From assembly GCA_963831935.1 (NCBI GenBank), contig CAWHSH010000004.1:461571-525570 (forward strand): DNA of 64,000 nt. Direction: 5' to 3'. The position numbers were made by a program, and so were the translations under genes. The notes under the pieces were generated by a model. The model was given only the letters and a program-made list of their open reading frames with translations. It was not told the DNA's origin and did not search any database. This stretch comes from an uncultured Bacteroidales bacterium. GTDB taxonomy: Bacteria > Bacteroidota > Bacteroidia > Bacteroidales > VadinHA17. Below, piece by piece: positions 15,176-60,530 of this stretch; the first letter of the stretch is position 1, and every line of letters starts with the position of its first letter.

Positions 15176-15211
15176 CCAAAGATTTAAAGGCCGGCAATTT
15201 ATTGATATGTT

Positions 15212-41224: not shown

Positions 41225-41896
41225 ATGGCACTATCTGACTGGCTGGGAAAAAACTGGATTGAAATATTTGGTGCCGTTGCAGGCATAATCTACGTATTTC
41301 TCGAAATAAAGCAAAACCTCTGGTTATGGCCGGTCGGGATAGTCACATCTGCGGTCTACATCCTGGTTTTTTTCACAAGTAAGTTTTATGCAGATATGAG
41401 TCTGCAGGCCTATTACCTGGTTATCAGCTGCCTGGGCTGGTACTGGTGGGTCAAAGGCACAGGGCACAGGGCGCAGGGCTCAGGCAGGAGGAGGAATAGG
41501 AGAAAGGGAGAAGGGGAGATCAGGCATCCGCTCCCGGGAGGGGCCTGGGAAGGGGGTCAGGGGGATGTTAAATTGAAAGTAACCAGATTAAAGCTTCGTA
41601 CCGGGATAATCCTCACGGCTGCTTTTGCCTTAATATATGCGGGCATCTGGCTTATTCTTTCAAGGCTGACTGATTCACCGGTACCGGAATGGGATGCATT
41701 TATTACTTCATTGTCGGTAATTGCAACGTGGATGCTGGCCCGCAAGATCTATGAGCACTGGTATTTGTGGATAGTTGTCAATTCGGTATCATCCGGACTT
41801 TTCCTGTTCAAAGGACTTTATCCAACAGTAGGATTATACCTTATTTACCTGGTGATGTCATTTGCCGGACTGAAGGAATGGAAGCGTTCATTGTGA
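41225..41896 (+). CDS. pnuT: PnuC-family transporter (PnuT-type thiamine transporter) carrying an in-frame repeat insertion
   Basis: PnuC motifs (IFGAVAGIIYVFLEIKQNLWLWPVG, GWYWW). It is the second gene downstream of the TPP riboswitch. The central loop holds about 37 extra G/R-rich residues encoded by repeat DNA. Confidence 0.8.
   Translation: MALSDWLGKNWIEIFGAVAGIIYVFLEIKQNLWLWPVGIVTSAVYILVFFTSKFYADMSLQAYYLVISCLGWYWWVKGTGHRAQGSGRRRNRRKGEGEIRHPLPGGAWEGGQGDVKLKVTRLKLRTGIILTAAFALIYAGIWLILSRLTDSPVPEWDAFITSLSVIATWMLARKIYEHWYLWIVVNSVSSGLFLFKGLYPTVGLYLIYLVMSFAGLKEWKRSL
41455..41572. repeat. Composite family A/B repeat embedded in frame in pnuT
   Basis: The string cacagggcacagggcgcagggc, a purine-rich stretch, then catccgctcccgggagggg..gggggtcagggggatg. 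Same part order as the intergenic composite at 26.05-26.16 kb. Confidence 0.6.
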
Positions 41897-42842
41897 CCGA
41901 TCGCATGTGCATTCATTCGCAGGGAGAATTTCCTGAAGCAGGTTCATCATCACTAACCGATTGTACCGATCATCGATACATTTTCCGCAGGCGGAAAAGC
42001 GGCTCAAATCCCACACGTCTGCAAATACACGTCCCGCATTCAGTTTAAGACCGTATTCCAGAACAGTTTCGAGCGACCGGATAGAGGGTGGTGTAAAGAG
42101 TCCCTTGTTCATCAGGATTTCCATCGCTCCATTCCCTGGCCTTACCGGTATAATAGTGCAGCATTCAACACCCACACTGAAAGCAAAATCGAGCGACCGT
42201 TCTGCCCAGTAAATTCCTTCTGATTCTGTCAGAAATGGGTGGTCTCAGCAGGATGAATGCCCTTGACCGTATTTTATTTTTTAAAAGGAAGCTGACCGAC
42301 TTCGTGAAATCATCAAGAGTCATCTGTTTGTTGAGCTTCGCAAGTATTTCAGGATTGGCAATTTCGAGTCCAAGGGCTATTTGAAGGTCAGGTTTCAGCA
42401 TATCTCTGAAGATCAGGCATTTTTCATTTATCAGCCCTGGATGGCTTTCAACAATAATTGTATCTAATCCGTTGACCAGCGATGCGATTTTTTTATAATC
42501 TTCTTCGGGAATGGCTCCTGTATCAAAGAAGCTTCCGCTGTTATAGAGCTTCAGATGTTTTACAGCAGGAAGGCTTTTCAATGCCCATTCAATCTGGTTT
42601 GGAACGGCACCGGCGGGGACTGTCCTGTCGGTAGTATTTTTCCACAGGTCGCACATCAGGCACCGGAAAGTACATTCACGGTTGGTCAGAAAGATGATTG
42701 CCACATCTTCAATTTTCCCGGAATGGGTTCTTTCCTTTTCGACCAGCCATGCGTAAGGCTTCTGCGGATCGACAGGATTTTTCTTCCCGCGGCTCTCTTT
42801 TATCCAGCTGTTGTTTATTTTCAGATCAGGGATATCATTCAT
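41888..42842 (-). pseudogene. Radical SAM protein, RaSEA/TIGR01210-like, one frameshift
   Basis: CTFRCLMCDLW (Cx3Cx2C). The C-terminal part in a second phase reads ..CCTIIPVRPGNGAMEILMNKGLFTPPSIRSLETVL. Fragments 42165..42923 and 41888..42175. The probable start MNDIPD at 42842 overlaps the upstream stop by 8 nt. Confidence 0.65.
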
Positions 42843-44163
42843 AGTTGGAAAGGAATTCTTTCCTGTAGGTTGTTTCCCGTCCAGGAAAATGCTTTTTGAA
42901 AGCATCCTCCGACGCGGCACCATGCTGAAAGCGTCTTTTTGGGAATACAGGCATAGTTATACCTGTAACTGCTTTTATTCCGTCAGAAACTAGCTGTCCC
43001 TTAAGATCATACAACTTTTTATGATCCCATCCAGTGATATCAATGTAGGGAATACCTTCTGAAATCTCGATAACATTTGGCAGGGTATACGGGCTGAATA
43101 CTTCGAAACCAAGGCTGTCTCCGGTGGCAAATGTTCGCATGTAACCCCTGCTTAATCCACCTGAATAGGTTAATGAGTGTTTAATCGAATCCACTCCCCA
43201 CCCTTCATGGTAAAGCATCAGGTTATTAAGAACACTTCGTATTGTCAGTTCCGGATTCTCCTCGATGGGATAGTCCTTCAGGTTTTCGTCACCGCCTTCT
43301 CCTTCAATAATATACTTCCAGTCGGGATAACGTGACCTTATTCCCTGCATAAGCGATAAATTCATGGTAGCCGATTGTATATCCAGGGGTTTATAGTCTT
43401 CTACAACTTTAATTGCTTTTTTCCAGTCGAGAGTCGAATAATCTGCCTCAACCGGTTCCAGAAAAAGCTCAAGACCAAGGGTTTCAAGAAATTTCCTTGC
43501 CTGTATAAGATCGTCTCCGGCTCCATCGATGCTAAGTGTAAATGCTTTAAGTCTTGAAGGGCTTTCCCCAAGCTCTTTAAGAGCATGATAGGTAAGCAGG
43601 AAGACGCTCCCGCTGTCAATTCCCGCAGAGAAGGCCACTCCTATGGGTCCTGTTTTTGCACGGAACTGCAGCCATTTCCTTATCTCTTTGTATAGGGTCC
43701 TGATGTACAACTCCCCTATTTTTGCGGAATTCTCTGATGAAAAACTATTCCGCTCGGGGCTGAAAAACCGCTCATACACAGGATTGGGGTCAGGACAGCC
43801 AAGCAGTTCAATTTTCGTAATGTAGTGAGCCGGGACCATCCTCGTGTAGGAAGGGTGGAACTGGTCAGCCAGACCTTCCCTTGTGAGATATTCAAAAATT
43901 ACGTCAATACGTTCAGCAACAATCAGATTGGGTCCGTCGGGCCGTTTGGCTATAAAATAACGGATCGGGCGACCGATTGACCGGGCCATCCTTATGGTCC
44001 TGCCATCAACCGAAATAAGTGAAAACTGTCCGTCAATCCTGCGTACCGCTTCACCGTCTCCCGATCTGACAATGTCCACTGCCTGCTCATGCGTCATGTT
44101 ATAGATAACATTCTTTTCCGGATTTGTCAGATCCACCACTTTACTTATGTACTTGTTATTCAT
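42835..44163 (-). CDS. Asparagine synthetase B-like ATP-dependent amidoligase lacking the N-terminal Cys nucleophile
   Basis: PP-loop GVAFSAGIDSGS. AsnB-like N-domain remnant (IDGQFSLISVDGRTIRMARSIGRPIRYF). The N-terminus is MNNKY, not MCG. Confidence 0.7.
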   Translation of the reverse strand: MNNKYISKVVDLTNPEKNVIYNMTHEQAVDIVRSGDGEAVRRIDGQFSLISVDGRTIRMARSIGRPIRYFIAKRPDGPNLIVAERIDVIFEYLTREGLADQFHPSYTRMVPAHYITKIELLGCPDPNPVYERFFSPERNSFSSENSAKIGELYIRTLYKEIRKWLQFRAKTGPIGVAFSAGIDSGSVFLLTYHALKELGESPSRLKAFTLSIDGAGDDLIQARKFLETLGLELFLEPVEADYSTLDWKKAIKVVEDYKPLDIQSATMNLSLMQGIRSRYPDWKYIIEGEGGDENLKDYPIEENPELTIRSVLNNLMLYHEGWGVDSIKHSLTYSGGLSRGYMRTFATGDSLGFEVFSPYTLPNVIEISEGIPYIDITGWDHKKLYDLKGQLVSDGIKAVTGITMPVFPKRRFQHGAASEDAFKKHFPGRETTYRKEFLSNYE

Positions 44164-44176
44164 ATCTGTTCTATGT

Positions 44177-45988
44177 TTAAATTATACCTTTTCCCTGCAA
44201 AATTGTTATATACCTGTCACTCGGGATGTCATTATAAACCTCTACCAGGTCATCTGACCAGAAGATCTCAAGCCTATCGATCATTTGTTCCTTACCGAGT
44301 CCGATATGAAGCCTTGGATCGTTGTTCGAGAGATATGATGTTGCCCATTGATTTACCAGGACCTGTTTCCTGCCTCCTGCAGTAACGGTCACTTTTGCAC
44401 TTATTGCAGAAGCAGGTCCGGATTTGCCTTTAAGTGTCAGGCCAAGCCAGTGATTGCTGTTGCCTCCTTCATTTCTGAGCAGGGAGGCAGTGGCTATAAG
44501 GTCGACATGTGATACTATTATATCCAGGTCCCCGTCATTATCATAATCCCAGACAGCAGCGCCTCTTCCGCTTCGTTTGGTTGAAAAATAAGCACCATGT
44601 TCCCGTCCTGTATTTTTAAAATGTCCGGTACCGTCATTTTCCAGCAGCAGGGGATATTGCAGGATAAGTTCTTCTGCAGTTCCGTTTGCCGCGAAGATAT
44701 CCAGATCACCATCGTTATCATAGTCAAAAAGTGCAGTTGCCCAGGTTCCTTTTCCTGCAAATGCTCCGGCTACACCGCTTGCTTCGGTAATATCGCTGAA
44801 TAGACCGTTCCCCAGGTTTTTGTAGAGTGCACCATATGAGAGATCCGAAACCAGCATATCAATCAGGCCATCCCCGTCAACATCACCGATAGTGCCATGC
44901 ATCGAGCCTGTACCTATTCCCTGGCTGTTTGCAGCCACACCGCTGGCAATTGCTACCTCCTGATATTTTCCATCGTCACACCTGAATAAAAAATTAAGCT
45001 GATGATCATTTGCCTGAAAAATATCAAGATCACCGTCATCATCGTAGTCGAATACTGTAAGGCCCATGCATTTTGAATCGGGATAGTAAAGATTTGCTTT
45101 TTTTGTCACGTCAATAAATTTCCCGTCAGGCTGTTGTTCATAAAGCATGGACGCCTGCCCCTTGTATTCTGATGGATGAGGCATTTTACCCGGTGTTACA
45201 GGCGAATCATAAGCAGGATCAAAGGCCAGGAAATTACCAACCATGGCATCAAGCCTGCCATCAAGGTTATAATCCCAGAAGGAAACGCCGATGCTCCATT
45301 TTGTAAAACCGTTCAGCTTTTCGGGTCCTGTTAACCCAACAGAATTCGTAATATCGGAGAATGTCCCGTTGCCGTTGTTAAGGAAAAATACATTGGGCCC
45401 GTAATTCAGCAAATAGAGGTCCTCATCGCCGTCATTGTCATAATCGATTGCTCCTGCGGCCATACTCCAGTGTGTATCGGCAAGACCTGCCTGTCCGGCT
45501 GTTTCGGTAAATGTTCCGTTCCCGTTATTCCTGTAGAGTCTGTCAGGTGTATCTTTGTAGATAACTCCTTCCGGATCGGAAATGCCTTCAAGATATGTTC
45601 CGTTCATAAGGTACACATCCATTAATCCGTCGTTGTTATAATCAAAAACCGTAACGCCTGAGCCGCTGCTCTCCAGGATATTCACATAACTTTTATCCCC
45701 GAAATTGTATTTGAAATCAATACCGGCGGGAGTTGTGACATCCTTGAAAGCAACACCGGATCTCTCATCAGCCGGGTGAAATGAAATCAATAAAACTGAG
45801 AGGATGAAAATATTTAAGAACTTACTCAGAGAGCGCTTAGAAGCCAAAGAAATCCACTGAGTTAAATAAGAGTCCCTCTGTGTGACTCTGCGCTTCTCCG
45901 TGAATCTCTGTGTAACTAAAAAGCGCTCCTTTTCTTTAATAACCATTGGCTGATTATTCACCTGATTAAAAAATTTTTTACCAGTCAC
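44177..45988 (-). CDS. CRTAC1-family protein (FG-GAP/VCBS repeats + ASPIC/UnbV domain), copy C
   Basis: Repeated DYNNDGxxDxY calcium-type FG-GAP units. C-terminal NHWLGLTLKG..YLSNNDPRLHIGLG..IFWSD. The start is uncertain: either GTG at 45988 (GTGA overlap), or TTG at about 45847 just before the signal-anchor helix. Confidence 0.8.
   Translation of the reverse strand: MTGKKFFNQVNNQPMVIKEKERFLVTQRFTEKRRVTQRDSYLTQWISLASKRSLSKFLNIFILSVLLISFHPADERSGVAFKDVTTPAGIDFKYNFGDKSYVNILESSGSGVTVFDYNNDGLMDVYLMNGTYLEGISDPEGVIYKDTPDRLYRNNGNGTFTETAGQAGLADTHWSMAAGAIDYDNDGDEDLYLLNYGPNVFFLNNGNGTFSDITNSVGLTGPEKLNGFTKWSIGVSFWDYNLDGRLDAMVGNFLAFDPAYDSPVTPGKMPHPSEYKGQASMLYEQQPDGKFIDVTKKANLYYPDSKCMGLTVFDYDDDGDLDIFQANDHQLNFLFRCDDGKYQEVAIASGVAANSQGIGTGSMHGTIGDVDGDGLIDMLVSDLSYGALYKNLGNGLFSDITEASGVAGAFAGKGTWATALFDYDNDGDLDIFAANGTAEELILQYPLLLENDGTGHFKNTGREHGAYFSTKRSGRGAAVWDYDNDGDLDIIVSHVDLIATASLLRNEGGNSNHWLGLTLKGKSGPASAISAKVTVTAGGRKQVLVNQWATSYLSNNDPRLHIGLGKEQMIDRLEIFWSDDLVEVYNDIPSDRYITILQGKGII
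45872..45916. repeat. Solo heptamer array (family A, 4x CTCTGTG-type) inside the cluster
   Basis: The string ccctctgtgtgactctgcgcttctccgtgaatctctgtgtaac. It is translated as VTQRFTEKRRVTQRD within the long version of ORF 44177..45988. Confidence 0.65.
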
Positions 45989-48900
45989 TTTTTCCTGATT
46001 GCATTCAAATACCCATCCGTCGTAACCACCCTTGTATTATACTCCCTGATGAACTTTTGAAGCTCAGGATCATCGGGATACTGATCGCTTTTTGAAGGAG
46101 GATAGCTTTTCATTCCGTGAAACGGAAGAGGCAAAACCGTTTTGCCAGACGCGGTATTAAGATCACCGTCTTTCACCCAACCCACACTGCGGATAAGGAA
46201 ATCCCTTTTCCATCCCTGTTGCAGCGGTGGCAATCCACTGTCAGAAAAAGAAACAGTGGTTTCATCTCCTGCGTTAGTTATAATGTACTTATTGTCAGAC
46301 TCTTTAAGGAGAGTCAGCACATCTCCGTACCTTGTATAATCGCCGGTCAGATCCCGCCATCGGGGTTCACTGCTTACTTCTGAATAATCAAACCAGTGAG
46401 GGCCATATCTTCCTCCCTTCCTGTAACTCCTTGAAAATCCCCTGTAATGCAGATCAGCAGCGACGGGGTCCAGAACATTAGATACAACTGGCTCTGTTGT
46501 CAGGCAATCTGAAAAGAAAATCTGATCCCAGTATATTTCCATATTGGTCCTGATCCGGATCCGGTGATCGGGTGTGGTTATTTTACCCGAGAGGTCCACA
46601 ATAACTGTTTTATCCTTACCCATTGGAAAACCTGGATGATCATTCACCGTTTCCCATTCGCCTTTCTTGTTAATTACCTGGATTACAGGAGGTATAACTT
46701 TAATATCAGATGATTGTGAAACAGCAACATTTATGCTGGCATCGGTAGGGAAAATCCATCCGTTCATAAAGAGAAATACATTTCCTGTGATATCCATGCT
46801 CCCGGGATCAAGAATCAGATCATGCAATTCAGTGATTCCCTGGTATCTTGCTGGCTTTAATCCGGCAATGTAGCTGTCATCCTTTTCAATTATAAACGAC
46901 CGGAGGTCTGTTCCGTTTTCATCTGTTACCGATGCCGGAAAATATTTACCTGCAACACTGTAAATCCTTAATTCCGGAAAAGGGGGAGGAGTAAACTGCT
47001 CTGCAACATAAATTTCCGTTGAAGCTGGATGATCAACTGTAACCAGCTGTAATTTATCGAGATATATTGTCTCCCATAATTCTGATGTTACCTGAATTGA
47101 ATAGATTCCGTTATTCGGTTTCAGTAGTTCCCCGGGTATTTTTAAATAATCATCCGAAGCATCGGGAAATGCATAAACCGTTGTGCCTCCCATAATACCT
47201 GAAGGCATGCCCAGCGCGCTTCTCCACAAAATATCTTTTGCAAAAATATATTCACTGCCATCCCAGGTGTAAAGGAACGGGCATGATCCTTTAAGCATCT
47301 GGGCTTCAATGAGCGACTGGTCGGTTTCGGGAAAGAAGATATTCTGCGGAACGCCGTTGGTCCAGGTAATGCGTATTACATCAGCCTTTGAGCGGCTTCC
47401 AATACCAAAATGAATATTGGGATCAGTGACCACCTTTGTCTGGTACAGATCGCCTGACCGTAATTCTACCTTTGCTCCTATACCGAAGTAGTTATTTTTT
47501 GCACTGCCCGCTCTCAGGCCCACGAGTTTCATGTTTATGAAATGGCCTGCATTACCTCCATCGTTTCTCAAAAGGAATACACCTCCGTTAAGTCCTGCAA
47601 CCACTAAATCGAGATCGCCATCATCATTGTAATCCATAATGGCAATCTGCTTTCCTGATTTGATTTCCTGCGGCAACAGCTGAGACATATCGGTGAAACT
47701 GCCCTTACCGTCATTATGATACAGTAACAATCCCCGTCCGCTCTTTTCTGCTGATTCCCCTGCAAAACAAATATCAAGGAATCCATCGTTGTCAAAGTCT
47801 ATAAATGCGGCATCATAGGCATTTACATTCTGAAGAGCCCTGAATACCTCCTTTGTTTTGCTGTTCTTTTCAAAGGTACCATTTCGCATATTATGGTACA
47901 GTTCATGATTGCCACCATTAATTGAAGTGACAAAAAGATCGAGATATCCGTCATTATCATAATCTCCGGCAGTAACAGCTCCGGAGTTCCCATCACTCTT
48001 CAATCCGCTGCCTGGAGTAATATCCTTATATAATCCCTGACGCTGGTTGGAATAAAGAACATTCCCTGTATTTTTATTTACTACAAAAAGGTCAAGATCA
48101 CCATCTTCATCAAAATCGCCAAAAGCTGCGTCAGTGGTAATAAATTTATCCCCTGCCAAACCCATTTTTGCTGCCTGTTCCTGAAAAGTGCCATCAGAAT
48201 TATTACGGAAAAGCAGGTTTGAATTTGACTCCATTTCAAACAGATCAAGGTCGCCGTCATGATCGGCATCGAAGAACAATGCATTATTGCCTCCGGTTTT
48301 GCTGCCGATTTTTGCACTGTTTGTCACATTCTCAAAAGTTCCTTTTCCTGTGTTGCGATATAATAAATCACCTTCATCCCTCACAATGTACAGGTCGAGG
48401 AATCCGTCATTATCGAAATCAGCAAATGAAGCTGAAGTCTCTTTCCCGGAATGTCTGATACCAGCTTCCGCAGAGACATCATTAAAACTACCCATTTCGT
48501 TTTTTAGAAGATAATGTTTATAAGATGAGGACCCGGGATCATAGCTGCCGGCATAAATGTCGATGTCACCATCCCCGTCGTAGTCGCTCAGGGCAACATG
48601 AGTAGAGTACTTAAAGCCCGGATTTTCACCCTCCCTGAACTCTTTTATAATATCCAGTCCTGCAGAGGCAGATACATAACTGAATTTAATTGCACCTGCT
48701 ACTGATTCAGTTGAAACCGGCTTAAATAAAGACTGCTGGTCGAATGTTATCAGCGGAAAACCGATAAGGGAGCCTCCGGGACCTTTTAAATCCATCATAC
48801 CTGACTGGTAAGGAGATGTGACCTTCAGATAATTGTGAAAAATCGTAAAGTTGGTGATCAGGTTTTCCTTATCCCCGCTCCGCAGGGCGGTCATGGTTTT

Positions 48901-49545: not shown

Positions 49546-49574
49546 ATCGTCAAAATTAGCAAATTAGGGGGATT

Positions 49575-50687: not shown

Positions 50688-50699
50688 CTTCTCAAATAA

Positions 50700-50772: not shown

Positions 50773-50774
50773 CT

Positions 50775-51662: not shown

Positions 51663-51682
51663 TGTATATTCTCCTTTAAATA

Positions 51683-52994
51683 TTAATATCCTGTTCTGGC
51701 TTTTTTATAAATTTTATCACTTTTCTCCAAGGGAGGAGCGGGTGAAAATATAAATTTACCGTTATTGATCTCTGCCATGAATATTGGTCTTATATTGTTC
51801 CAGGTTGCATCAAAGATCACTTTACCCGTAACACCCTGATATCCCTGGAAAGTTTTCATATCTGTAAGAATATCACGGATCAATACCCGGTTTAAGCCCA
51901 CTTTCCGAATGGCTTCAATTATCATGTTCATTCCGTCATAGGCATGTGCGGCAAACACATCCGGCTCCTGGCCAAATCTTTTTAAATAGTTGGCTTTAAA
52001 TGCTTTCAGTTTTGGATCGTTCGCATCGGGATTATACTGGCATGTGGTTACAATGCCTTCGGCCGATTTACCTGCAATACTTAGAAATTCTGCAGATAAC
52101 CATCCTGTCAGAACCATATACCGGTTGGTTCATTCCCAGTTCCCGGATCTGCTTCAGAATCAGAGCCGATTCTTTGGCATTTCCCCAGATCTGAATCGCA
52201 TCCGGTGAGGTTTTCTTTATTCGTTCCAGCTGTTCTTTGAAATCAGTCTCTCCATCGTTGAAACGTTCTTCTATTACCAGGGGAAAGCCTATACGTGTAG
52301 CTGAACGGGTAAAATGCAGGATTCCCACTCTCCCATAACGGTTGTTGGACCTTATTACTGCAACCCTCGAGTGTCCGTCTATTTTAAAAATACGGTTAAC
52401 AAGAGCATAACTGCTTTGCCGGTCATCAGGTATGTTACGAACGACCCATGGTATTGCTGTTTCTGTAAAAGTAGGATCGGGATCACCGGTGTTGACGTTT
52501 GGGATCTCAAGTTTTAAAGTTGCTCTTATTGCAACATGTGACACTATATCATCAATTGATCCCAGCCATGCCCATACTTTTTCATCGTCCATTTTCACTA
52601 CCTCATTTGCAGCAGCACCCCATAGTCCTACATCGTTGTGTATCATCAATTTAAAAGGCAGTCCTTTATAACCTCCCCTCTTATTTGCTTCTTCAATGGC
52701 AAGCATTGATCCCTGAAGCATCTGCTTTCCCAGTGATACTAGGACTGAACCCTCCAGTGGTCCGAGAAAACCTATCCTTACTTCTTTAATGTCAGTCGGA
52801 GGGAGCTTTTCACGACCGGCACCGTAAAACTGTACAGGTTCGAGAAAATGATATTTATAGGCCTTCTGATATTTGTCAAAAGCTACCAGCTCATCCGGTA
52901 TATTGCCATAGTTAACTTTTTTCTCCTGTCCATTGGCAGATGAAAAGGCAGCTAAAAAAATAGAACTTATTAAGATCTTAAATATTGGTTTCAT
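51683..52994 (-). pseudogene. LivK-type periplasmic substrate-binding protein, second orphan copy, one frameshift
   Basis: Fragments 52068..52994 (signal peptide, VRIGFLGPLEG..GGYKGLPFKL) and 51683..52117 lie in different phases. Confidence 0.7.
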
Positions 52995-53003
52995 ATTTAA
53001 AGG

Positions 53004-53600
53004 TTAACTTATTTTACAAATTGCATAAGCTTCAATCTCTACAAGGAGGGTTTCCCAGCATAGCCTTGCCTGTATTCCGGTACTGGCAGGCAAAGGATCC
53101 AGATTCATCCACCTGAAGAAAGAAGTTCTTATTTTGTTGAATTCTTCATAGTCTCTTTCAATATCCCTCAGATAATTAGTGGTCCTGACCACATCATGCC
53201 ATGTCATTCCTTCAGACTGGAGGAGATTTGTTATATTCCTGTAAGTTCTCCAGGTCTGAGCTTTAAAATCACCAATATGTTCTGGTTTGCCATCTTCATT
53301 CACACTGGCTGTTCCGGAAATCAGCAAGGTCTTATAACCACCAAATTCAAGCCGTAACGCCCTGGTAAAGGAGGATGGTTTTTTATAATCATATGCTTCA
53401 TTAATAACCTGCGGAGCATGAACGGAGGCTTTCTCAATGGGAGGCCGTTCCTTATGAACAGCAGGATAGTTGTAGCTGTGAATGAAGGTATCATCTGACA
53501 ACATTCCAAGTTTTGTCATCTCATCACGCTCCCCTTTCGTAAGCTTTGTCAGATCTATTAATAATTGTGTATTCTCTGTTTTATAACCTGGGATTATCAT
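53004..53600 (-). CDS. YjgF/RidA-fold protein with N-terminal extension (chorismatase FkbO/Hyg5-like SGTAS motif)
   Basis: LLISGTASVNEDGKPEHIGDFKAQTWRTYRNITNLL...VEIEAYA. The RidA-type core is preceded by about 70 extra residues. No signal peptide. Confidence 0.55.
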   Translation of the reverse strand: MIIPGYKTENTQLLIDLTKLTKGERDEMTKLGMLSDDTFIHSYNYPAVHKERPPIEKASVHAPQVINEAYDYKKPSSFTRALRLEFGGYKTLLISGTASVNEDGKPEHIGDFKAQTWRTYRNITNLLQSEGMTWHDVVRTTNYLRDIERDYEEFNKIRTSFFRWMNLDPLPASTGIQARLCWETLLVEIEAYAICKIS

Positions 53601-53626
53601 ATTCTTATATTTACGATTTCAATAAA

Positions 53627-54817
53627 TTATCTGAGCAACTCACCCCTGCTGACTCCACTTGAAGTAGCAACCCACAAAACATCATCTTTCGCATCAACAC
53701 CTATAATAAAATTATGTGAAATTGATGGGGAAAGCTGTATTTCTTTCTTTTCAGACCCTGTTGTAATAATTGCTTTACCATTCCGGCTGTTGTCATCTTT
53801 CTTATATGTGACCCATGTTGTGCCGTCAGTACTGCTTAATCCGTTGTCGCTGCATACAAAAACTACCCTGCCTTCAGCTCTCAGGAAATTGATAAAATTG
53901 CTGGCAAGGCCACTGTCTTCTTTAAAATAGCCTTTCCAGTTTTTCCCGTCGTAGCGGCTCATACCGAAGTAGGTCGAGACCCATAATATACTGTCGGCAT
54001 AAGAAGTGGCGGTTGTTATATCATGGACTATGCCATCATCGGGCTGAAGGTCAATTTCCATAAAGCCGTCGGGATCAGTGTAATCCCTGAAATGTCTGGT
54101 TTGTGTATTGTATTCTATCACGCCGCCTCCCCATGCGGCAATCCAGACTTTTCCATCCCCGGCTGACAGGGCATAGGTCCATGGTTCATGCATCGGGGCA
54201 TTCATTTCAGTGAATATTTCCCATTGCCTTGTTTCAGTATCATAATGTCCGGCACCGCCACCAGTGGCAACCCAGATATCTTTTCCGTAGCAAAAAACGT
54301 TGTAAACCAAATCATTTGGCAATCCGCTGTTGAACTGGTTAAAGGTCTCAAATTTACCGCCGGACCAGCGGTTGAGACCTCCCAGTGTTCCGATCCAGAC
54401 ATCACCGGTGAGCTGGCTCACATCTATGGATACAACACCATTATGAGCCAGTCCATCTTTCGTGGTGTATGTATGCCATTTATCATTTTCATAAACTGCG
54501 AGACCATCATGTGTTCCGACAAGTACACGGTTTCCATCAATCCTTACCGTATAGGCTTTGTCTGATGGCAGTCCGTCCTTTGATGTAAAGTTACGCCAGT
54601 GTCCATAAACAGGCATGGCTCTCGCTTCCTTTATTACACCGGAACTATTACCGGGACTGGTATCACTGGTATTTGGCGGGATGCCGGCTATGGATTGATT
54701 ATCCTTCTTTTCAGGCCTTTCATCTCTCACCGGTTTTTTTATTATTATCAAACCTGCCACCACAACAACTATCAGGATTATTGCAGTGATAAAATATTTA
54801 AATGACTTTTTTTTCAT
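53627..54817 (-). CDS. Membrane-anchored two-component-regulator-propeller (Reg_prop) repeat protein without output domain
   Basis: N-terminal TM (ITAIILIVVVVAGLIII). Repeated units VWIGTLGGLNRW / IWVATGGGAGHYD / VWIAAWGGGVIEY / LWVATSSGVSRG. Confidence 0.7.
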   Translation of the reverse strand: MKKKSFKYFITAIILIVVVVAGLIIIKKPVRDERPEKKDNQSIAGIPPNTSDTSPGNSSGVIKEARAMPVYGHWRNFTSKDGLPSDKAYTVRIDGNRVLVGTHDGLAVYENDKWHTYTTKDGLAHNGVVSIDVSQLTGDVWIGTLGGLNRWSGGKFETFNQFNSGLPNDLVYNVFCYGKDIWVATGGGAGHYDTETRQWEIFTEMNAPMHEPWTYALSAGDGKVWIAAWGGGVIEYNTQTRHFRDYTDPDGFMEIDLQPDDGIVHDITTATSYADSILWVSTYFGMSRYDGKNWKGYFKEDSGLASNFINFLRAEGRVVFVCSDNGLSSTDGTTWVTYKKDDNSRNGKAIITTGSEKKEIQLSPSISHNFIIGVDAKDDVLWVATSSGVSRGELLR

Positions 54818-54849
54818 CTGTTCATAATTTTGTTTTTTAATGGTCAGAT

Positions 54850-54907
54850 GGAATATCCATGAATGATCATTTCGGTTTGTGATTTTACTTTTTAATCATG
54901 GATATTT
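54850..54907. repeat. Inverted repeat (about 11-bp stem aatatccatga/tcatggatatt) in the largest internal gap of the cluster
   Basis: Read directly in the 123-nt spacer between 54941..56977 and 53627..54817. Confidence 0.4.
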
Positions 54908-54940
54908 CATAGATTTCAGTCTAGGTATCCAAGTTTAAGT

Positions 54941-56977
54941 TTAATTATGTCTCAGCGATGCATGGAGTATTTTGGTTTTGTTTTGTTCGTATTCAGGGTC
55001 TCTGAGAGATTTAAGGTATTCTATCAGTTCGTTAAGCTCTATTTTGGTAAGATCATTGACCGATCCATGTTGTTCAGTTTTGCCGTATAATGTCCATATT
55101 TCTTCAAGTGTCCTGGCACGTCCGTCATGCAGGTACGGAGGTGAAGCGAAAATGTTGTTCAGATGAGGAGTGTCGAAAAGTATTGAATCATCTGAAAAAG
55201 CAAGTGTACCGACATCCGCTTTTTTCTTATTTGTAAAATATGGGGCAGGATGACAGGTTACACAACGGTTCACAACCGGGATCTCATAGCCGCGTTTATC
55301 GTGTGTCCGTTCAAAAATCTCCTTTCCACGAATCTGTGCTTCCGTGAGCTCACCATCCGGATTATACAAAAGGTCAGGAGGATTGTCTATTCCGGTCATA
55401 ATATATGCGGTTATGGCATCAAGCTCTTTGTAGTTGAAGGCTTCGGTTCTGGTCAGGACGGTGGAAAACCTCATGCCATCCTGTTTGTAGACTGACTGGT
55501 TCATCCCGTTCCATTTATATGGAGGTGTTTCGCCAATATGCCTTAGCGATTGAGTGTTTGTCATATTCCGACCCATATCTTTTGATGCCATATTGTAGAC
55601 GAGCCCGTCTTCGTGGGCATCAGGATGACAGGTATAACATGAGTACTGGTTCTGAAAAGTATGTCCGGCATTATTGAGCAGCCTGCGTCCAAGGCGGTGG
55701 ACAGTAATCCGTCTTGGTCCGCCCAGATCAATTGTTCCGATTGTTCCAAGACTGTCGGTGCTGATAACAGCTATTCTGTCCTGTAGATGTTCAGCAACAT
55801 AAAGTCTTTTACCGTCAGGAGAAAGCGCTAGACCCTTTGGATTGGCTCCGGTGGGAATCCGTTTAATAACAAACCGACTGCTTATACCGAGGTGATTGGA
55901 ATATAAATTAAGCATTTCATCAGTTGATTCCGCAAGGATATCCCTTACAGCACCTATATCTATTACAGAAATGCAATCCACGCCCGAATGGGAAACAAAT
56001 GCCCTTTTGCCATCGGGAGTAATAGCTATTCCAAAAGGATCAGCATAATATGCGTTTGGTTCATCAAGAAGCAGTTGAATTATCCTTCCCGGTGATCCTT
56101 GTTCAACGATTCCTATCCCGTCTGTCATCATCCAGCCTCTTTCAACCTGTAAAGTGGGGACATTGTTTTTTGGTCTTATAAGAGGCATAAATGCCAGGTC
56201 ACCGGAGGGAGTAAAAGCTATATTTTCCATCAGGTAGGCCGATTTGATATCCTTTCGATCAACGACCCTTTGGTTTTTGTTATTTACAACCGTCAACTCA
56301 CATCTTATGGTATCTCCAAATGGGGCAGATAAGGTCCGGCGGCTTGTTACATACAACAGTTTGCCATCGGGGGAAATTTTTACACCCGTTGGATTGTTGC
56401 CGGCAGAAAGCCTTTTTTGTTCAGTTCCTGTAGAAAGGTCGATCACTGATATGTCGGATGAGAAAGAGTTTACAACATAAAGATATTGTCCGTCAGCACT
56501 TAATGCCAACCCTGCCGGACCATTCCCGGTTTTGAGGGTGTCGGTTACGATGAACTTTTCAAGGTCGATTACCGATACATTATCTGACCATTGATTGCTG
56601 ACAAAAGCCGTTTTCCCGTCCTTGCTCAGTACAACACTATGCGGACGAATTCCGACCCTGATCTTATGTTTTACCTTGCCTTTTTCAGTATCGACCACAA
56701 GCAATGCATTACCTTCTTCTGCAACTGCATAAAGATCTCTCCCGTTTTCGGAAACAGTCAGATTAAATGGGGAATAATATTGGGCATCAATGAATTTTGA
56801 AATAATCTTCGACTTTTTTAAATAAAGGTGGCACGACAAACACTCCAGCGGATGATCAGTAGCGGCAGTCATATAGTTAACATGCTCCCGTGCCCAGCGG
56901 TGAAAAGGAAAAGATAAAACAGCACCAACGGTAAATAGAGCTCCAAGAGGTATTATAATCTTTAAATACTTTCTCAT
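54941..56977 (-). CDS. Tri-haem protein: N-terminal anchor + CXXCH, YVTN-type beta-propeller, di-haem cytochrome c peroxidase/MauG-fold domain
   Basis: CLSCH near the N-terminus. At least 6 blades (PHSVVLSKDGKTAFVSN, PAGLALSADGQYLYVVN, PTGVKISPDGKLLYVTS, PKGLALSPDGKRLYVAE). CYTCHPDAHEDG, CVTCHP, PPYLHDGRARTLEEI. Confidence 0.8.
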   Translation of the reverse strand: MRKYLKIIIPLGALFTVGAVLSFPFHRWAREHVNYMTAATDHPLECLSCHLYLKKSKIISKFIDAQYYSPFNLTVSENGRDLYAVAEEGNALLVVDTEKGKVKHKIRVGIRPHSVVLSKDGKTAFVSNQWSDNVSVIDLEKFIVTDTLKTGNGPAGLALSADGQYLYVVNSFSSDISVIDLSTGTEQKRLSAGNNPTGVKISPDGKLLYVTSRRTLSAPFGDTIRCELTVVNNKNQRVVDRKDIKSAYLMENIAFTPSGDLAFMPLIRPKNNVPTLQVERGWMMTDGIGIVEQGSPGRIIQLLLDEPNAYYADPFGIAITPDGKRAFVSHSGVDCISVIDIGAVRDILAESTDEMLNLYSNHLGISSRFVIKRIPTGANPKGLALSPDGKRLYVAEHLQDRIAVISTDSLGTIGTIDLGGPRRITVHRLGRRLLNNAGHTFQNQYSCYTCHPDAHEDGLVYNMASKDMGRNMTNTQSLRHIGETPPYKWNGMNQSVYKQDGMRFSTVLTRTEAFNYKELDAITAYIMTGIDNPPDLLYNPDGELTEAQIRGKEIFERTHDKRGYEIPVVNRCVTCHPAPYFTNKKKADVGTLAFSDDSILFDTPHLNNIFASPPYLHDGRARTLEEIWTLYGKTEQHGSVNDLTKIELNELIEYLKSLRDPEYEQNKTKILHASLRHN

Positions 56978-56979
56978 AT

Positions 56980-58413
56980 CTATTCCAGTTCTACGATTTT
57001 TTCTTTGATCGCGGTAATATGAACAGGGATGATCACCGGAGCTTTTGTTACAGCAAGGGATACCCTGTTTTCCGGTACCAGTTCAGGATCTTCATGACAA
57101 CCGATACACCCGCGGCGTTCATTTGGGCGTAACCATAACCATGAGCACGGGCCATTTATGACATTTCCTTTTTCATCAAGGGTTCTGATCCGGAATGGAG
57201 TGTCGGCCAAAACTTTTAAATTAAATGAGCCGTCCTTTTCCACCTGAACAATCCCGTAAGTAGTATCGACACCCAGAACTTCAATCTTCCCTGCCTTTGG
57301 CAGATTGCCAGGACCAACCGGCAATAACGGATTAATAAAGTTAATATTCTGGCAAAGCAGTAATCCGGTCTTTACCTGCATATCCACTTCGCTTGGCAGC
57401 TTCTTAGGCATTTCATGCTCCCTCACCTCAGCAACATCCAGAACATTATATTGAGAATCAGAAAAAATTGTTTGCCCGAGTGACTTTTTGACCGGATCAA
57501 AAACAAAAAGAGCAAAATTTTCTAAATCCGATCTTCGGAAAGAAACCAGATATTTGTCCGTATTAAGAGGCATTACATAAAAAAACTCTCCATCGATCCC
57601 GGATGAAATATTTTTGCGTGTATGTAAAGGTCTGTTGTAACTGATCGAGATCACATCTTTTCCTTCTTTATTCCCTTCATCAGTTTCGATAAAAACAATC
57701 CTGCCATCGGTTGTTTCGTTTGCTTTGCTTAACAAAATGCTGCCTTTTTCCGCCTCATAAAACAGGTCGGCTTTGGTTCCGTCGGGGCGCATGACTTTTA
57801 ACATTGGAGTGCCCGTTTCCGGCATCACTGGCATGCTTAATGTCAGCAGCCTGCCATCCTTTAGAACAGAAGTAACAATGTTGGTCTGAGGACTGAATGT
57901 TATCTGTTTCAGGCCGGAGCCATCGGGATTACATGTAAAAAGGCAATGTGCTTTCTTCACAGTGTCATTGACAGTCAGTTTACTGAATACCAGTCGTCCG
58001 CCCGGCAGATAGGCCGGATCAGTGCAGTCTTCTCTGAATGACCTGATTTTTCTGGATTTAAGATTAACAAGCTCCATCTCCCAGATCTGCCAGGGATCGT
58101 TTGCATTCTGCTGTGCCGCAAAAAGCATGAATCGGCCGTTAAATGAAATTTCAGGAAAGGAGGCAGAATAAAAATCTTTCGTAAGGACCTTAAATGATGC
58201 AGGTTTATCGGGATTGAATGCGACTATCCGTGCCCCGGGCAAATATCGCCGGGATTCACCGGAGATATAATCATGATCCTGAATTTTACCCGGATACTCA
58301 GTTGCCACCAGCATCCCGCTTCTAACTGATTTTCCCCTGCATGAAAGTAAAATCACAGAGGAGATACTTATGCAAGCTGCGCTGAGTATGATAGTTGTGC
58401 GATTAATTTTCAT
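56980..58413 (-). CDS. HzsA-like lipoprotein: TolB/PD40-type propeller + C-terminal mono-haem (CIGCH) domain
   Basis: Lipobox ILLSCRG. PD40-like blades. C-terminal GPCSWLWLRPNERRGCIGCHEDPELVPEN resembles, from memory, the hydrazine-synthase alpha middle-domain family. Confidence 0.6.
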   Translation of the reverse strand: MKINRTTIILSAACISISSVILLSCRGKSVRSGMLVATEYPGKIQDHDYISGESRRYLPGARIVAFNPDKPASFKVLTKDFYSASFPEISFNGRFMLFAAQQNANDPWQIWEMELVNLKSRKIRSFREDCTDPAYLPGGRLVFSKLTVNDTVKKAHCLFTCNPDGSGLKQITFSPQTNIVTSVLKDGRLLTLSMPVMPETGTPMLKVMRPDGTKADLFYEAEKGSILLSKANETTDGRIVFIETDEGNKEGKDVISISYNRPLHTRKNISSGIDGEFFYVMPLNTDKYLVSFRRSDLENFALFVFDPVKKSLGQTIFSDSQYNVLDVAEVREHEMPKKLPSEVDMQVKTGLLLCQNINFINPLLPVGPGNLPKAGKIEVLGVDTTYGIVQVEKDGSFNLKVLADTPFRIRTLDEKGNVINGPCSWLWLRPNERRGCIGCHEDPELVPENRVSLAVTKAPVIIPVHITAIKEKIVELE

Positions 58414-58422
58414 GAACCAGTG

Positions 58423-60123
58423 TCATTTAGGCTCTTTAACTTCCAGGATCTGATTTGCTTTGATATTTTCGAGTGTCTGTACTTTACCGGATGGCCAGGT
58501 TATTTCTATCATGTCGGCAGTTTCATTTTTAGCGAGGCCGAAATGCATCCTCGGGTCATTTTGTGAAAGGTAACCGGTTGTACTTTTTTTCTGTGCCGTC
58601 TGGACTTTGCCTCCGGATGTTAATTTCACCCTTGCTCCGACTCCGTCGCGGTTGCTGGTTGTACCTATAATATTAATTATCAGCCAGTTGTTCTGGTTGC
58701 CTTTATTATTGCGCAGGAATACTGACTGGCTGTTAAGGTTAACGATAAATATATCCATATCGCCGTCATTGTCATAGTCACCGAGGCATGCTCCGCGTCC
58801 GACAAGCTCCCTTTGAAAGTATTTGCCCAGTTCCAGGGATACATCCCTGAATTTGCCGGTGCCGTCGTTATTAAACATCTGGTCTTCCTGCCCATACAGG
58901 TGTTTAAGAGCACCGTTGGTTTTAAAGATGTCGACATCGCCGTCATTATCGTAATCGACAAATGATGAAGACCATCCTACAAACTGTGCTGCAGCCATCG
59001 ATATATTTGAAGAAACACCTTTATCCGAGAAAATACCGTTACCCATATTCTCATACAGTGAGCAGTAGGAATCATCAGACACAAACAGATCGAGTAGTCC
59101 ATCACCATTAAAATCAGAAAAATCGACCGACATGCTTACGGTTGCTTCACCTGCCTGACTGAATGCTGTACCTGACATTGTTCCGTTATTGACAAATTTC
59201 TTTCCCCCTTCGTTATGCCAGAGATAATTCAATGTATGATCGTTGGCTACATAAATATCAACATAACCGTCCTGATCATAATCCGCTGCACCCACACCCA
59301 TAGCTCTGCCATCAACATCTGTTATACCCATGCTTTCTGTTACATCGCTGAAAGTTCCGTCACCGTTGTTATGATATAAAACATCCTTCTGGCTGTCGTA
59401 GGCCATAGGACCCGGGAAACCGTCGGGAGCGTAATAGTATTTATACTCCGGATCGAACTCAAGATAATTGCCAACATAAATATCCAGGTAACTGTCATTG
59501 TCATAATCAAGCCATACTGCTCCTACACTGCACTCCTTTCCTCCGCCGGTATTTGACCGTCGTGTAACATCCGAAAATGTGCCGTTCCCGTTATTCTTAA
59601 GCAGCACATTCGGGCCATAATTACTAATGTATATATCAGGATAACCATCGTTATTGTAATCACCGACTGTGACACCCATGCTATACCAGGGCCCGCCCAC
59701 TCCGGCTCTTTTTGTAACGTCTTCATAAGTTCCGTCGCCCCTGTTGCGGAAAAGGTGGTTCCCGGGCAATTCAGCCGGTTTTTCACTCTTGCTGAAACCT
59801 TCAATCCATGTGCCGCTGCAGGCATATATATCAATGAAACCATCCTGGTCATAGTCGAGAAAAGCGGCGCCGCCTCCGTCTGATTCAATAATATTGGTCA
59901 GATCGCTGGCACCTAAGGAGTGAATAAAATTCAGTCCGATCTGCTGTCCTATTTCCTGAAAATAATCTTCAGAGGCAGCAGGAATATTTGCTGAAGTTTT
60001 CTTTCCTGCCCGGGGAGAGGGATTATTTGACTGGCAACCCTGAAAGGCCAGAAAAAGGATAATAAAAAAGAGATAATACCTATTTATATTTATATTTCTC
60101 CGAAAATTCTTTTTTCTAATCAT
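58423..60123 (-). CDS. CRTAC1-family lipoprotein (FG-GAP/VCBS + ASPIC/UnbV), copy A
   Basis: Lipobox LAFQGCQ. FG-GAP units (DYDQDGFIDIY, DYNNDGYPDIY, DYDNDGDVDIF). C-terminal NNWLIINIIG..YLSQNDPRMHFGLA..ITWPSG. Confidence 0.85.
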   Translation of the reverse strand: MIRKKNFRRNININRYYLFFIILFLAFQGCQSNNPSPRAGKKTSANIPAASEDYFQEIGQQIGLNFIHSLGASDLTNIIESDGGGAAFLDYDQDGFIDIYACSGTWIEGFSKSEKPAELPGNHLFRNRGDGTYEDVTKRAGVGGPWYSMGVTVGDYNNDGYPDIYISNYGPNVLLKNNGNGTFSDVTRRSNTGGGKECSVGAVWLDYDNDSYLDIYVGNYLEFDPEYKYYYAPDGFPGPMAYDSQKDVLYHNNGDGTFSDVTESMGITDVDGRAMGVGAADYDQDGYVDIYVANDHTLNYLWHNEGGKKFVNNGTMSGTAFSQAGEATVSMSVDFSDFNGDGLLDLFVSDDSYCSLYENMGNGIFSDKGVSSNISMAAAQFVGWSSSFVDYDNDGDVDIFKTNGALKHLYGQEDQMFNNDGTGKFRDVSLELGKYFQRELVGRGACLGDYDNDGDMDIFIVNLNSQSVFLRNNKGNQNNWLIINIIGTTSNRDGVGARVKLTSGGKVQTAQKKSTTGYLSQNDPRMHFGLAKNETADMIEITWPSGKVQTLENIKANQILEVKEPK

Positions 60124-60500: not shown

Positions 60501-60530
60501 GTTTTTAAAAGGAAACGAGAATAAGAAATC

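Follow-up and report, generated by a model that had tools for sequence, protein, structure and literature searches.

A conserved gene cluster around homologues of hydrazine synthase in Bacteroidota and a second, high-GC lineage

Hydrazine synthase (HZS) makes hydrazine in anammox, and its hosts are Brocadiia. In the enzyme of Kuenenia stuttgartiensis (PDB 5C2V), the α subunit combines a propeller with a haem domain, β is a seven-bladed propeller and γ is a di-haem CCP-like domain; the enzyme is extracytoplasmic and has four haems c in total, including those at the αI, γI and γII positions. Homologues of HZS have been surveyed by Hagglund et al. (2025, Genome Biol Evol; PMC12758564), who sorted co-localised α/βγ pairs into four clades and concluded that the homologues are unable to make hydrazine, without proposing a function for them. 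Bacteroidales, Flavobacteriaceae and Maribacter are among the hits in their supplement. HZS-like enzymes have also been suggested to represent a broader family with other substrates in a study dealing with hzs-like genes of Phycisphaerae and KSB1 (PMC10732223). Our literature search for a described Bacteroidota system returned only these two papers. Here we analyse a cluster of 12 genes containing an α/βγ pair of this kind, found at positions 41888-60123 of a 64-kb stretch (hereafter, the window) of contig CAWHSH010000004.1 from an uncultured Bacteroidales bacterium (assembly GCA_963831935.1).

Among the four published clades, the cluster matches clade III. In that clade, a CRTAC1/FG-GAP gene lies upstream of α, a fused βγ gene comes next, and two genes for ABC substrate-binding proteins (SBPs) follow downstream. 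Clade III α has no αII haem and is missing about the last 100 residues, βγ has one extra haem motif, and Trp stands in for γHis144, while γCys165 is kept in clade I only (PMC12758564). The cluster in the window shows the same gene order, αII loss, single extra haem, Trp at position 144 and lack of Cys165; the match is one of description and not of placement in a tree. What the main text on clade III does not include is a separate propeller protein (Prop), two further CRTAC1 proteins (TPR-CRTAC1-B and CRTAC1-C), a YjgF-like protein, DAHP synthase, an AsnB-like enzyme, a radical SAM protein and a two-component system, all of which accompany the pair in the window. The initial annotation of this DNA knew of no described system with such a composition. 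For the core set (CRTAC1, α, βγ and two SBPs) this has to be corrected in view of PMC12758564, but for the remaining partners it stands as far as the main text of that paper goes. Both the full conserved gene set and its spread to a second lineage exceed that main text.

Composition and conservation of the gene set

The 12 genes behave as a single inherited unit. In the open reading frame (ORF) listing of the window they are consecutive and all on the minus strand, following one another in transcription as CRTAC1-A, HzsA-like, HzsBC-like, Prop, YjgF-like, SBP-2, DAHP synthase, SBP-1, TPR-CRTAC1-B, CRTAC1-C, AsnB-like and radical SAM. The gaps between them are 9, 2, 123, 26, 9, 20, 87, 29, -4, 13 and -8 nt, the last value presupposing that the radical SAM gene starts at the ATG at 42842. 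The six-frame ORF list agrees with the initial annotation in these coordinates and gaps, and Pfam and NCBIfam searches recovered all of its domain assignments.

Eight of the products have a lipobox, a signal or an anchor and four do not, as judged by eye from the N-termini (no predictor), which agrees with the split into exported and cytoplasmic proteins noted at the outset. A lipobox Cys is present in CRTAC1-A (58423-60123), HzsA-like (56980-58413) and TPR-CRTAC1-B (45985-49545). A hydrophobic anchor or signal begins HzsBC-like (54941-56977), Prop (53627-54817), CRTAC1-C (44177-45988) and the two secreted LivJ-type proteins, SBP-1 (49575-50687; Peripla_BP_6, 9.8e-28) and SBP-2 (51683-52994, in two ORF pieces; Peripla_BP_6). 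The three CRTAC1 proteins share the combination of FG-GAP_3 and UnbV_ASPIC: CRTAC1-A has an FG-GAP/VCBS propeller (FG-GAP_3, 3.6e-54) and UnbV_ASPIC (2.8e-24), CRTAC1-C is a third paralogue (8.4e-43 and 3.1e-16, respectively), and TPR-CRTAC1-B adds N-terminal TPRs and a C-terminal domain of about 440 residues. HzsA-like consists of a TolB-type propeller and a one-haem 'middle domain' (HZS_alpha, PF18582, 1.9e-18), and HzsBC-like of its N-terminal anchor, a CXXCH motif, a seven-bladed YVTN propeller and a di-haem CCP/MauG-like domain. Prop is a membrane-anchored single β-propeller whose Reg_prop repeats are weak in Pfam. The four products lacking export signals are the YjgF-like protein (53004-53600; YjgF/RidA family, Ribonuc_L-PSP, 1.6e-16, with an N-terminal extension of about 70 residues), DAHP synthase (50775-51662; DAHP_synth_1, 1.6e-84; type I-beta, with no regulatory domain), the AsnB-like PP-loop enzyme (42835-44163; Asn_synthase, 2.9e-11, residues 172-304) and the radical SAM protein (41888-42842, in two pieces; Radical_SAM/TIGR01210).

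The FG-GAP/ASPIC proteins had been described as surface proteins, which appears overstated. Acidic residues after the lipidated Cys bear on surface export of Bacteroidota lipoproteins, and cytochrome c maturation is a periplasmic process. Since the four residues behind the lipid-modified Cys include no acidic one in CRTAC1-A, HzsA-like and TPR-CRTAC1-B, a periplasm-facing location is more likely for these lipoproteins.

The evidence for joint inheritance comes from synteny. We scanned one genome per GTDB species with an HzsA-like profile built from 31 diverse proteins, and at least 583 relatives are encoded among the 600 pattern matches examined in these species-representative genomes. The best 80 loci were kept, and an alignment of distant HzsA-like proteins served to retrieve a further 80 loci from metagenomes; each of the counts below takes in only loci long enough to show the gene in question. 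The 80 species-level loci include members of Bacteroidales, Rikenellaceae, Prolixibacteraceae, Flavobacteriaceae, Cytophagales and Rhodothermales. Most carriers seen are Bacteroidales of soil, fen, sediment and anaerobic reactors, to which marine Flavobacteriaceae and, in a second lineage, Opitutaceae are added; cultured carriers are Maribacter polysiphoniae DSM 23514 (Flavobacteriaceae) and Opitutaceae bacterium EW11. Loci of the second lineage have 62-74% G+C, compared with 43% on the low-GC side. Judging by the names on 75-93%-identical homologues of one AsnB-like protein (locus L094), the main high-GC clade is assigned to Opitutaceae (Verrucomicrobiota). Relatives of HzsBC-like number in the thousands, the best 120 all being at least 71% identical, and two contigs encoding such relatives (L001 and L002) have the same neighbours in the same order.

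On the low-GC side the set is nearly invariant. A CRTAC1 gene adjoins HzsA-like in 85 of 86 loci, HzsBC-like is present in 90 of 91, and no locus lacks Prop (81/81), SBP-2 (70/70), SBP-1 (59/59) or a downstream TPR-CRTAC1-B (58/58). The order CRTAC1, HzsA-like, HzsBC-like, Prop, SBPs, TPR-CRTAC1 is kept in nearly every Bacteroidota locus fetched. The high-GC loci show almost the same picture for CRTAC1 (26/28), HzsBC-like (26/27), Prop (21/22), SBP-2 (17/19) and SBP-1 (14/15), the TPR-CRTAC1 gene lying upstream of the cluster in this clade (0/14 downstream). Two gene-called Opitutaceae-type loci (L169 and L171) have the same neighbour genes. DAHP synthase (50/59 low-GC, 2/14 high-GC) and YjgF-like (53/59 and 5/14) are frequent accessories, not core members. 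A response regulator-histidine kinase pair lies upstream in 39 of 65 low-GC loci and in none of 11 high-GC loci.

The AsnB-like and radical SAM genes keep to the set even where their position changes. The radical SAM gene directly follows the AsnB-like gene in every locus viewed, and the pair is found in three places: after CRTAC1-C (the window, L002 and L004-L007, with a downstream position in L008 too), before CRTAC1-A (L022, L062, L063, L068, L070, L079, L081 and L085), and divergently oriented beside TPR-CRTAC1 (Opitutaceae L169/L171, L090 and L094-L098), where it must be a separate transcription unit because of its orientation. CRTAC1-C precedes AsnB-like in L002, L004-L007, L068 and L085. 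The genes beyond radical SAM vary from genome to genome. A linkage that survives rearrangement in two lineages, with only 25-60% protein identity and very different G+C content, is strong evidence for one functional module. We looked for the opposite pattern, sub-blocks occurring only independently in relatives, and found instead that the blocks co-occur in the 80 species-level genomes and in the high-GC contigs. The idea of an operon-like unit, put forward in the initial annotation, thus holds in that the gene set is inherited together. Its other half, synthesis or modification of an aromatic metabolite, does not survive as an obligatory core, because DAHP synthase and YjgF-like are optional.

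Two observations from the locus collection stand apart from these counts. A third arrangement, in which HzsA-like is followed by CRTAC1, HzsBC-like and then Prop and two SBPs, was seen in L129, L157, L158, L160, L163, L166 and L167, whose βγ proteins have 2, 9 or 10 haem motifs. These loci look like clades I/II of Hagglund et al., which means that Prop and the binding proteins accompany those forms too. In addition, a contig labelled as a Chloroflexota metagenome-assembled genome (L075, JBLNAO010000045.1) has the complete cluster, with a regulator 76% and a CRTAC1-A 70% identical to the window's Bacteroidales proteins; mis-binning of a Bacteroidota contig is more probable here than a Chloroflexota carrier.

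The two homologues of hydrazine synthase

HzsA-like and HzsBC-like are homologues of HZS α and βγ in both sequence and structure. In sequence searches of the PDB, HzsA-like matched the α chain 5C2V_A (8.4e-18), its CIGCH being aligned to the haem αI motif CSGCH. HzsBC-like matched β (5C2V_B, 1.4e-49, residues 67-407) and γ (5C2V_C, 1.3e-18), with its CYTCH and CVTCH aligned to both haem motifs of the latter, γI and γII. For the AlphaFold2 (AF2) model of HzsA-like (pLDDT 86.7), the top PDB match was again 5C2V (chains D/A, E 1e-24, TMq 0.77), and the second-best structural match, TolB, reached TMq 0.47. The haem-binding residues are conserved as well. Residues C436, C439 and H440 of HzsA-like are kept in at least 97% of 152 sequences, and at least 97% of 118 sequences keep C447/C450/H451, W489, C572/C575/H576, H617 and H637 of HzsBC-like. 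HzsA-like has one CXXCH and HzsBC-like three, the third just after the N-terminal anchor; three such motifs are found in 88/91 low-GC and 19/26 high-GC βγ homologues. The pair thus shares with HZS the architecture of all three parts, haems c at the αI, γI and γII positions and the total of four haems. In HZS the remaining haem belongs to the αII domain, whereas here it sits N-terminally on βγ, beside the anchor. Other differences from HZS are the fusion of β and γ, the order α to βγ, the partner genes, and the hosts, which are Bacteroidota and, by the assignment above, Verrucomicrobiota.

The same comparison argues against hydrazine formation. Judged on the curated cut-offs of the NCBIfam equivalogs (NF052339/40/41/42), the scores are far too low: 86 bits with 800 needed for hydrazine_alpha, 243 with 1250 for hydrazine_BC (NF052342), 211 with 560 for β and 80 with 625 for γ. 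HzsA-like has 477 residues compared with 782 in chain 5C2V_A. It has no C-terminal bis-His haem αII domain, since it ends 37 residues past its sole CXXCH. In HZS, Tyr591 ligates haem αI and His587 is diverted to a Zn site. Position +4 after the αI His, the site of Tyr591, is Glu in the window and E/N/A/S across 31 family members, so that the Tyr591/Zn site is absent. In HzsBC-like, the nine-residue 5C2V_C stretch with γCys165 (…tssldrvCg…), the cross-link loop, faces a gap, and γHis144 faces Trp489. The HZS residue numbers used here are those of Hagglund et al. (PMC12758564), checked against the HzsBC-like/5C2V_C alignment. The same authors reported a two-residue gap at Ser590/Tyr591 in clades I-III, identified the Trp at the γHis144 position as the residue of peroxidases and MauG, and found the Glu of the β-subunit tunnel loop not to be conserved in the homologues. 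A CXXCH search of the whole window found no gene besides the two HZS homologues, the only other match being an ORF of 112 aa that runs antisense within the gene for DAHP synthase; hence the window encodes no multihaem hydrazine dehydrogenase and no hydroxylamine oxidoreductase (HAO)-type protein.

The C-terminal part of HzsBC-like shares two CXXCH motifs and the inter-haem Trp with the di-haem CCP/MauG/MbnH family. Its last 250 residues or so match CCP_MauG (PF03150) with 33.6 bits (cut-off 25.6), and there are weak NCBIfam matches to MbnH-family and MauG models. The distal ligand of the γII-type haem is Met in CCP and Tyr in MauG. In HzsBC-like, the presumed equivalent is His637 of an 'HG' motif, which in the sequence alignment with 5C2V_C lines up with HZS γ rather than with Met or Tyr. 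HzsBC-like differs from the CCP/MauG/MbnH family also in being fused to a propeller and an extra haem, and in always being paired with a haem-bearing α-like partner. Within the HzsA-like family itself, one representative (P0314) has lost the haem motif, with RGFTGWDKNQW in place of RRGCxGCHE; haem-less α-like variants therefore exist. We set aside the KinJ hydrazine-forming haem enzymes, which have been described as a previously unidentified family whose partner is a ferredoxin.

The HzsA-like family is large, with 1201 clusters at 50% identity whose match to the window protein has an E-value of 1e-10 or better. As the nearest relatives of the hydrazine-making enzyme of anammox, these proteins would, once their function is known, reveal the ancestral chemistry of HZS. 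Their naming is of practical concern too. A non-anammox relative (P0361) is called 'Hydrazine synthase alpha subunit middle domain' by JGI, and with domain-based labels of this sort hzs surveys run at loose thresholds can miscall anammox potential in Bacteroidota-rich samples and could inflate anammox gene counts in metagenomes.

Accessory proteins and possible functions of the system

Among the partners of the haem proteins, Prop is closest to sensor domains. Its family profile matches the periplasmic propellers of the hybrid two-component system (HTCS) sensors of Bacteroides (4A2L, 2.5e-40; 3V9F, 3.9e-30; 3OTT, 1.6e-16). Unlike these sensors, Prop has one propeller and a single N-terminal anchor, and no Y_Y_Y, kinase, receiver or DNA-binding domain. 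SBP-1 and SBP-2 are distant relatives of LivJ/HAAT proteins, SBP-1 distantly resembling branched-chain/aromatic amino-acid binding proteins in the PDB; for both, the PDB matches are too remote to name a ligand. They had been called orphan binding proteins, and the gene-called clusters indeed show neither an ABC permease nor an ABC ATPase. The C-terminal domain of TPR-CRTAC1-B, about 440 residues long (45988-47328), has no Pfam relative, and a search of the PDB with its family profile gave no match below E = 0.05. The domain shares 33% identity with the high-GC counterpart in L098, with the invariant motifs GSCP.L..W.G, DHP, H.RGFS, GDE, RDF…VGW.KD.D and YNTR, and is a candidate new domain family.

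The AsnB-like protein is the most conserved member of the set, with 54-61% identity to Opitutaceae-clade homologues and long invariant blocks. Its AF2 model matches human ASNS, β-lactam synthetase, carbapenam synthetase and TsnB9 over both domains (TMq 0.50-0.63), although sequence identity to the solved AsnB-type enzymes is only 11-17%, only the PP-loop region can be aligned by sequence, and a single-sequence PDB search gave nothing useful for it (the same was true of a sequence search with the radical SAM protein). It keeps the PP-loop motif and, like the β-lactam and carbapenam synthetases, has no Cys nucleophile: its sequence starts MNNKY…, so that the initiator Met is not followed by a Cys. 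Given this two-domain fold, it is predicted to be a glutaminase-less, amide-forming adenylating enzyme. Glutamine-hydrolysing asparagine synthetase B was rejected, as the N-terminal Cys is missing and the TIGR01536 score (36 bits) is far below the cut-off (267).

The radical SAM protein has a CX3CX2C motif, and its best family is RaSEA (TIGR01210): the reconstructed 317-aa protein scores 4.3e-30 and 105 bits (cut-off 212). The ArcS/RaSEA route passes through a lysine adduct, which is then trimmed to an amidine. The window protein appears to be a distant RaSEA relative, a true RaSEA being set aside at half the cut-off and with an AsnB homologue, not ArcS, as partner. In archaeosine synthesis, the archaeal RaSEA acts after ArcS attaches lysine to preQ0 (PMC11298593). 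The setting differs here in the bacterial hosts as well as in the partner, and no tRNA-related genes lie nearby. Of the two frequent accessories, DAHP synthase is by family score a bona fide type I-beta enzyme, as it exceeds the cut-offs of NF006421 (458 bits, cut-off 335) and TIGR01361 (403, cut-off 268). The YjgF-like protein has 'PAS' where PH0854 has 'PAR', the motif that presumably holds the RidA catalytic Arg, and its TIGR00004 score is 43 bits with 106 required; an imine deaminase of the RidA type was rejected on both counts. A weak match to FkbO/Hyg5 chorismatases was also seen. The AsnB-like/RaSEA-like pair, the sensor-type propeller and the CRTAC1 protein with its unmatched 440-aa domain are concrete handles for experiments.

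Taken together, these features lead us to a reading to which we give a probability of roughly 45%: the cluster encodes one conserved envelope system around an HZS homologue that does not form hydrazine, namely a periplasmic two-site c-haem redox enzyme with binding proteins and cytoplasmic partners. The exported proteins would form a complex tethered to the periplasmic membrane faces through anchors and lipid tails. Electrons would pass by way of the anchor-proximal haem and the γII-like haem, of bis-His type, to or from a CCP/MauG-type catalytic haem at the γI-like site with its conserved Trp, and a small intermediate or oxidising equivalent would be handed to the second haem, in the α-like subunit, as in HZS. 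The second substrate may be an amino-acid- or amide-like ligand caught by SBP-1 and SBP-2 and reacting at the α-like haem; the CRTAC1 and TPR proteins and Prop would provide a scaffold or present the ligand. On the cytoplasmic side, the AsnB homologue would adenylate a carboxylate and form an amide or lactam, which the RaSEA-like radical SAM protein may remodel by analogy with ArcS/RaSEA. The resulting small molecule would be either used by the periplasmic enzyme or derived from its product. In loci that have them, DAHP synthase and the RidA-like protein may feed this route from the shikimate pathway. In many Bacteroidales a CusRS/HprRS-like two-component system would turn the cluster on, the signal probably being a metal or an oxidant in the envelope.

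Several points weigh against such a system. No small-molecule exporter or importer is encoded in the cluster, so that the link between its cytoplasmic and periplasmic halves is one of gene linkage alone. The binding proteins could be sensors instead of substrate carriers. By the locus counts DAHP synthase and YjgF-like are dispensable, and the two-component system, whose scores lie below the family cut-offs, is absent in 26/65 low-GC and 11/11 high-GC loci. Finally, the conservation of the AsnB-like protein (54-61% across lineages) would fit a macromolecular substrate equally well.

A more specific form of the envelope redox system, which we consider unlikely, would make it a widespread and so far unrecognised enzyme system, a living relative of the HZS ancestor that joins or transforms nitrogen species or oxidises an amine, with the AsnB-like/RaSEA-like proteins providing an amide or amidine metabolite pathway. 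For example, a haem-bound intermediate at the N-oxide or hydroxylamine level might be condensed with an amino-acid-type amine from the binding proteins. Were this true, current cycle models would lack a nitrogen/redox transformation performed by Bacteroidota and Verrucomicrobiota of sediments, peat and sea water.

Nitrogen chemistry might also take the form of a reductase, which would retain the ancestral half of HZS chemistry and convert NO or nitrite to hydroxylamine at the γI-like haem and hydroxylamine to ammonium at the α-like haem. Such an enzyme would serve periplasmic NO/NH2OH detoxification or ammonification, with the SBPs and CRTAC1 proteins as accessories. In favour of such an enzyme, the α/β/γ architecture and both candidate catalytic haems are kept, and the established mechanism of HZS starts with NO reduction at γI. 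Relatives with 6-10 haem motifs (L146, L160, L163, L166 and L167; clade I of PMC12758564) are likewise typical of multi-electron inorganic chemistry. In Opitutaceae bacterium EW11 (GCA_003054665.1), genes of NrfA type (Cytochrom_C552) and NrfH type (Cytochrom_NNT) lie 1.4 kb past radical SAM (positions 13726-15757 of locus L169), a possible nitrogen-cycle neighbourhood. This neighbourhood is limited to one genome, however, and the window has no further haem-c gene. Moreover, the γI features (the Cys165 cross-link and His144) are gone, leaving a site like an ordinary CCP/MauG haem with Trp, and the two amino-acid-type SBPs and the AsnB-like/radical SAM pair are left unexplained. On balance, a nitrogen-oxide reductase is doubtful.

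A different role would be that of a maturation enzyme of MauG/MbnH type. In this case, the di-haem domain, with H2O2 or O2, would oxidise Trp or Tyr in the product of an adjacent gene (CRTAC1, Prop, one of the binding proteins or HzsA-like), so building a metal site or a cofactor. The same protein would be modified before export by the AsnB-like and radical SAM enzymes, much as QhpD does for quinohaemoprotein amine dehydrogenase. The CCP/MauG Trp (W489), conserved in at least 97% of sequences in place of γHis144, the weak MbnH-family/MauG matches and the similarity of the two-component system to copper- and peroxide-sensing families are all consistent with this role. So is the unusually high conservation of the AsnB-like protein, as for a macromolecular substrate; peptide cyclases occur among AsnB-like enzymes devoid of glutaminase function. 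Yet a pure maturation enzyme would need neither a partner with a conserved αI-position haem nor relatives with eight extra haems, and no cofactor-bearing residue has been identified. Nor is there a small precursor gene: intra-cluster gaps are at most 123 nt in the window and 23-28 nt in L001/L002, on which grounds we also set aside a ribosomally synthesised precursor peptide (RiPP). Because the second haem is retained and some relatives have as many as ten haem motifs, we favour small-molecule redox chemistry over protein maturation, which seems to us quite unlikely.

The remaining two explanations hardly survive. Chance adjacency of two or three unrelated same-strand operons, for which one could cite the 123- and 87-nt gaps as room for internal promoters or terminators and the divergent AsnB-like/radical SAM genes of Opitutaceae, is very improbable and is ruled out by synteny: the same set recurs in two lineages at 25-60% identity, 43% as against 62-74% G+C and in three arrangements, and it stays together while its flanks change. 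Genuine HZS and thus cryptic anammox capacity in Bacteroidales, to which the top matches (HZS_alpha in Pfam, hydrazine_alpha and hydrazine_BC in NCBIfam) would point, is rejected as next to impossible, as the scores are 86 bits with 800 required and 243 with 1250, the haem αII domain, the Tyr591 equivalent, the γCys165 loop and γHis144 are all absent, the window has neither a multihaem hydrazine dehydrogenase nor an HAO-type gene, and one of the carriers is a cultured flavobacterium that we take to be aerobic, Maribacter polysiphoniae DSM 23514.

Flanking genes, intergenic regions and frame disruptions

Upstream of the cluster and on the same strand lie genes for a HAMP/HisKA sensor histidine kinase of CusS/CopS/HprS type (60531-61907; Pfam and NCBIfam) and an OmpR-type response regulator (61999-62619; Pfam Response_reg and Trans_reg_C). 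The top NCBIfam model for the regulator is TIGR01387, heavy-metal response regulator (210 bits, cut-off 279), and that for the kinase, matched over its full length, is TIGR01386, heavy-metal sensor kinase (215 bits, cut-off 292). The two-component system is thus nearest the Cu/Ag (CusRS) and HprRS group by sequence, though below the family cut-offs, and is probably a separate transcription unit. Between the kinase gene and CRTAC1-A there is an intergenic region of 406 nt (60124-60530, minus strand) that is gene-free in homologous loci and likely holds the promoter of the cluster. Upstream of the Maribacter cluster we found an unrelated MacAB-TolC-type efflux system and a LytTR two-component system, so nothing beyond CRTAC1-A is conserved there.

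Scans for regulatory signals within the cluster gave little. A sigma-70 promoter scan, which does not cover Bacteroidota promoters, returned 50 matches compared with 41 +/- 6 in shuffled sequences, not clearly above the background, and a terminator scan returned 27 compared with 18 +/- 4.5, again with no clear excess. Hairpin repeats had been noted in the 123- and 87-nt gaps. The former, between HzsBC-like and Prop, does contain an inverted repeat (54852-54906) with perfectly matching 11-bp arms and a spacer of 33 nt, whose fold is more stable than that of shuffles (z = -3.0) and which is the sole copy in the window, with none expected; hairpins in the 87-nt gap are at the shuffle level (z = -0.42). 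As the corresponding gap is only 23-28 nt in L001 and L002, the repeat does not belong to the conserved features of the system.

The two frame disruptions reported inside the cluster are both real in the assembly. The SBP-2 frame is broken near 52,090, its pieces spanning positions 1-223 and 231-342 of the PF13458 profile, while its homologues are intact (429-446 aa). The radical SAM frame is broken at 42,237, where the window differs by one inserted or deleted nucleotide from contig L173 (94% identical), in which the protein is intact at 317 aa; a one-base repair restores the 317-aa protein in the window as well. Outside the cluster, genes for an arabinofuranosidase, an M61 peptidase (three ORFs), a pirin and GH106/GH2 proteins are split, the broken genes lying at 24515-25373, 26333-27825, 30876-31710, 31858-32911 and 40028-41209. 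A TonB-dependent receptor is represented by a 393-aa ORF, compared with an intact 810-aa protein in L173, which is a short-read contig of 94.3% identity. Isolated 1-nt indels relative to L173 occur at 42237, 39892, 39586, 38552, 36450, 34221 and 32895, and relatives derive from long-contig 'MFD' assemblies. In view of isolated single-base indels relative to an intact relative and the long-contig assembly background, consensus errors rather than gene decay are the simplest reading. Finding two or fewer disruptions in 28.5% of the window has a binomial P of 0.0009, if the initially given total of 35 is correct, but without reads the low number inside the cluster should not be taken as selection. 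That the grouping is more than chance follows from synteny, not from window statistics.

A GC-rich repeat-like stretch (41450-41630; translated GHRAQGSGRRRNRRKGEGE…) lies inside the gene for a membrane protein, the nicotinamide mononucleotide (NMN) transporter (41225-41896). Nowhere does the alignment to L173, in which units such as CCTGTCGCCTGCCGCC recur, contain more indels than in this stretch, which may be a variable tandem insertion.

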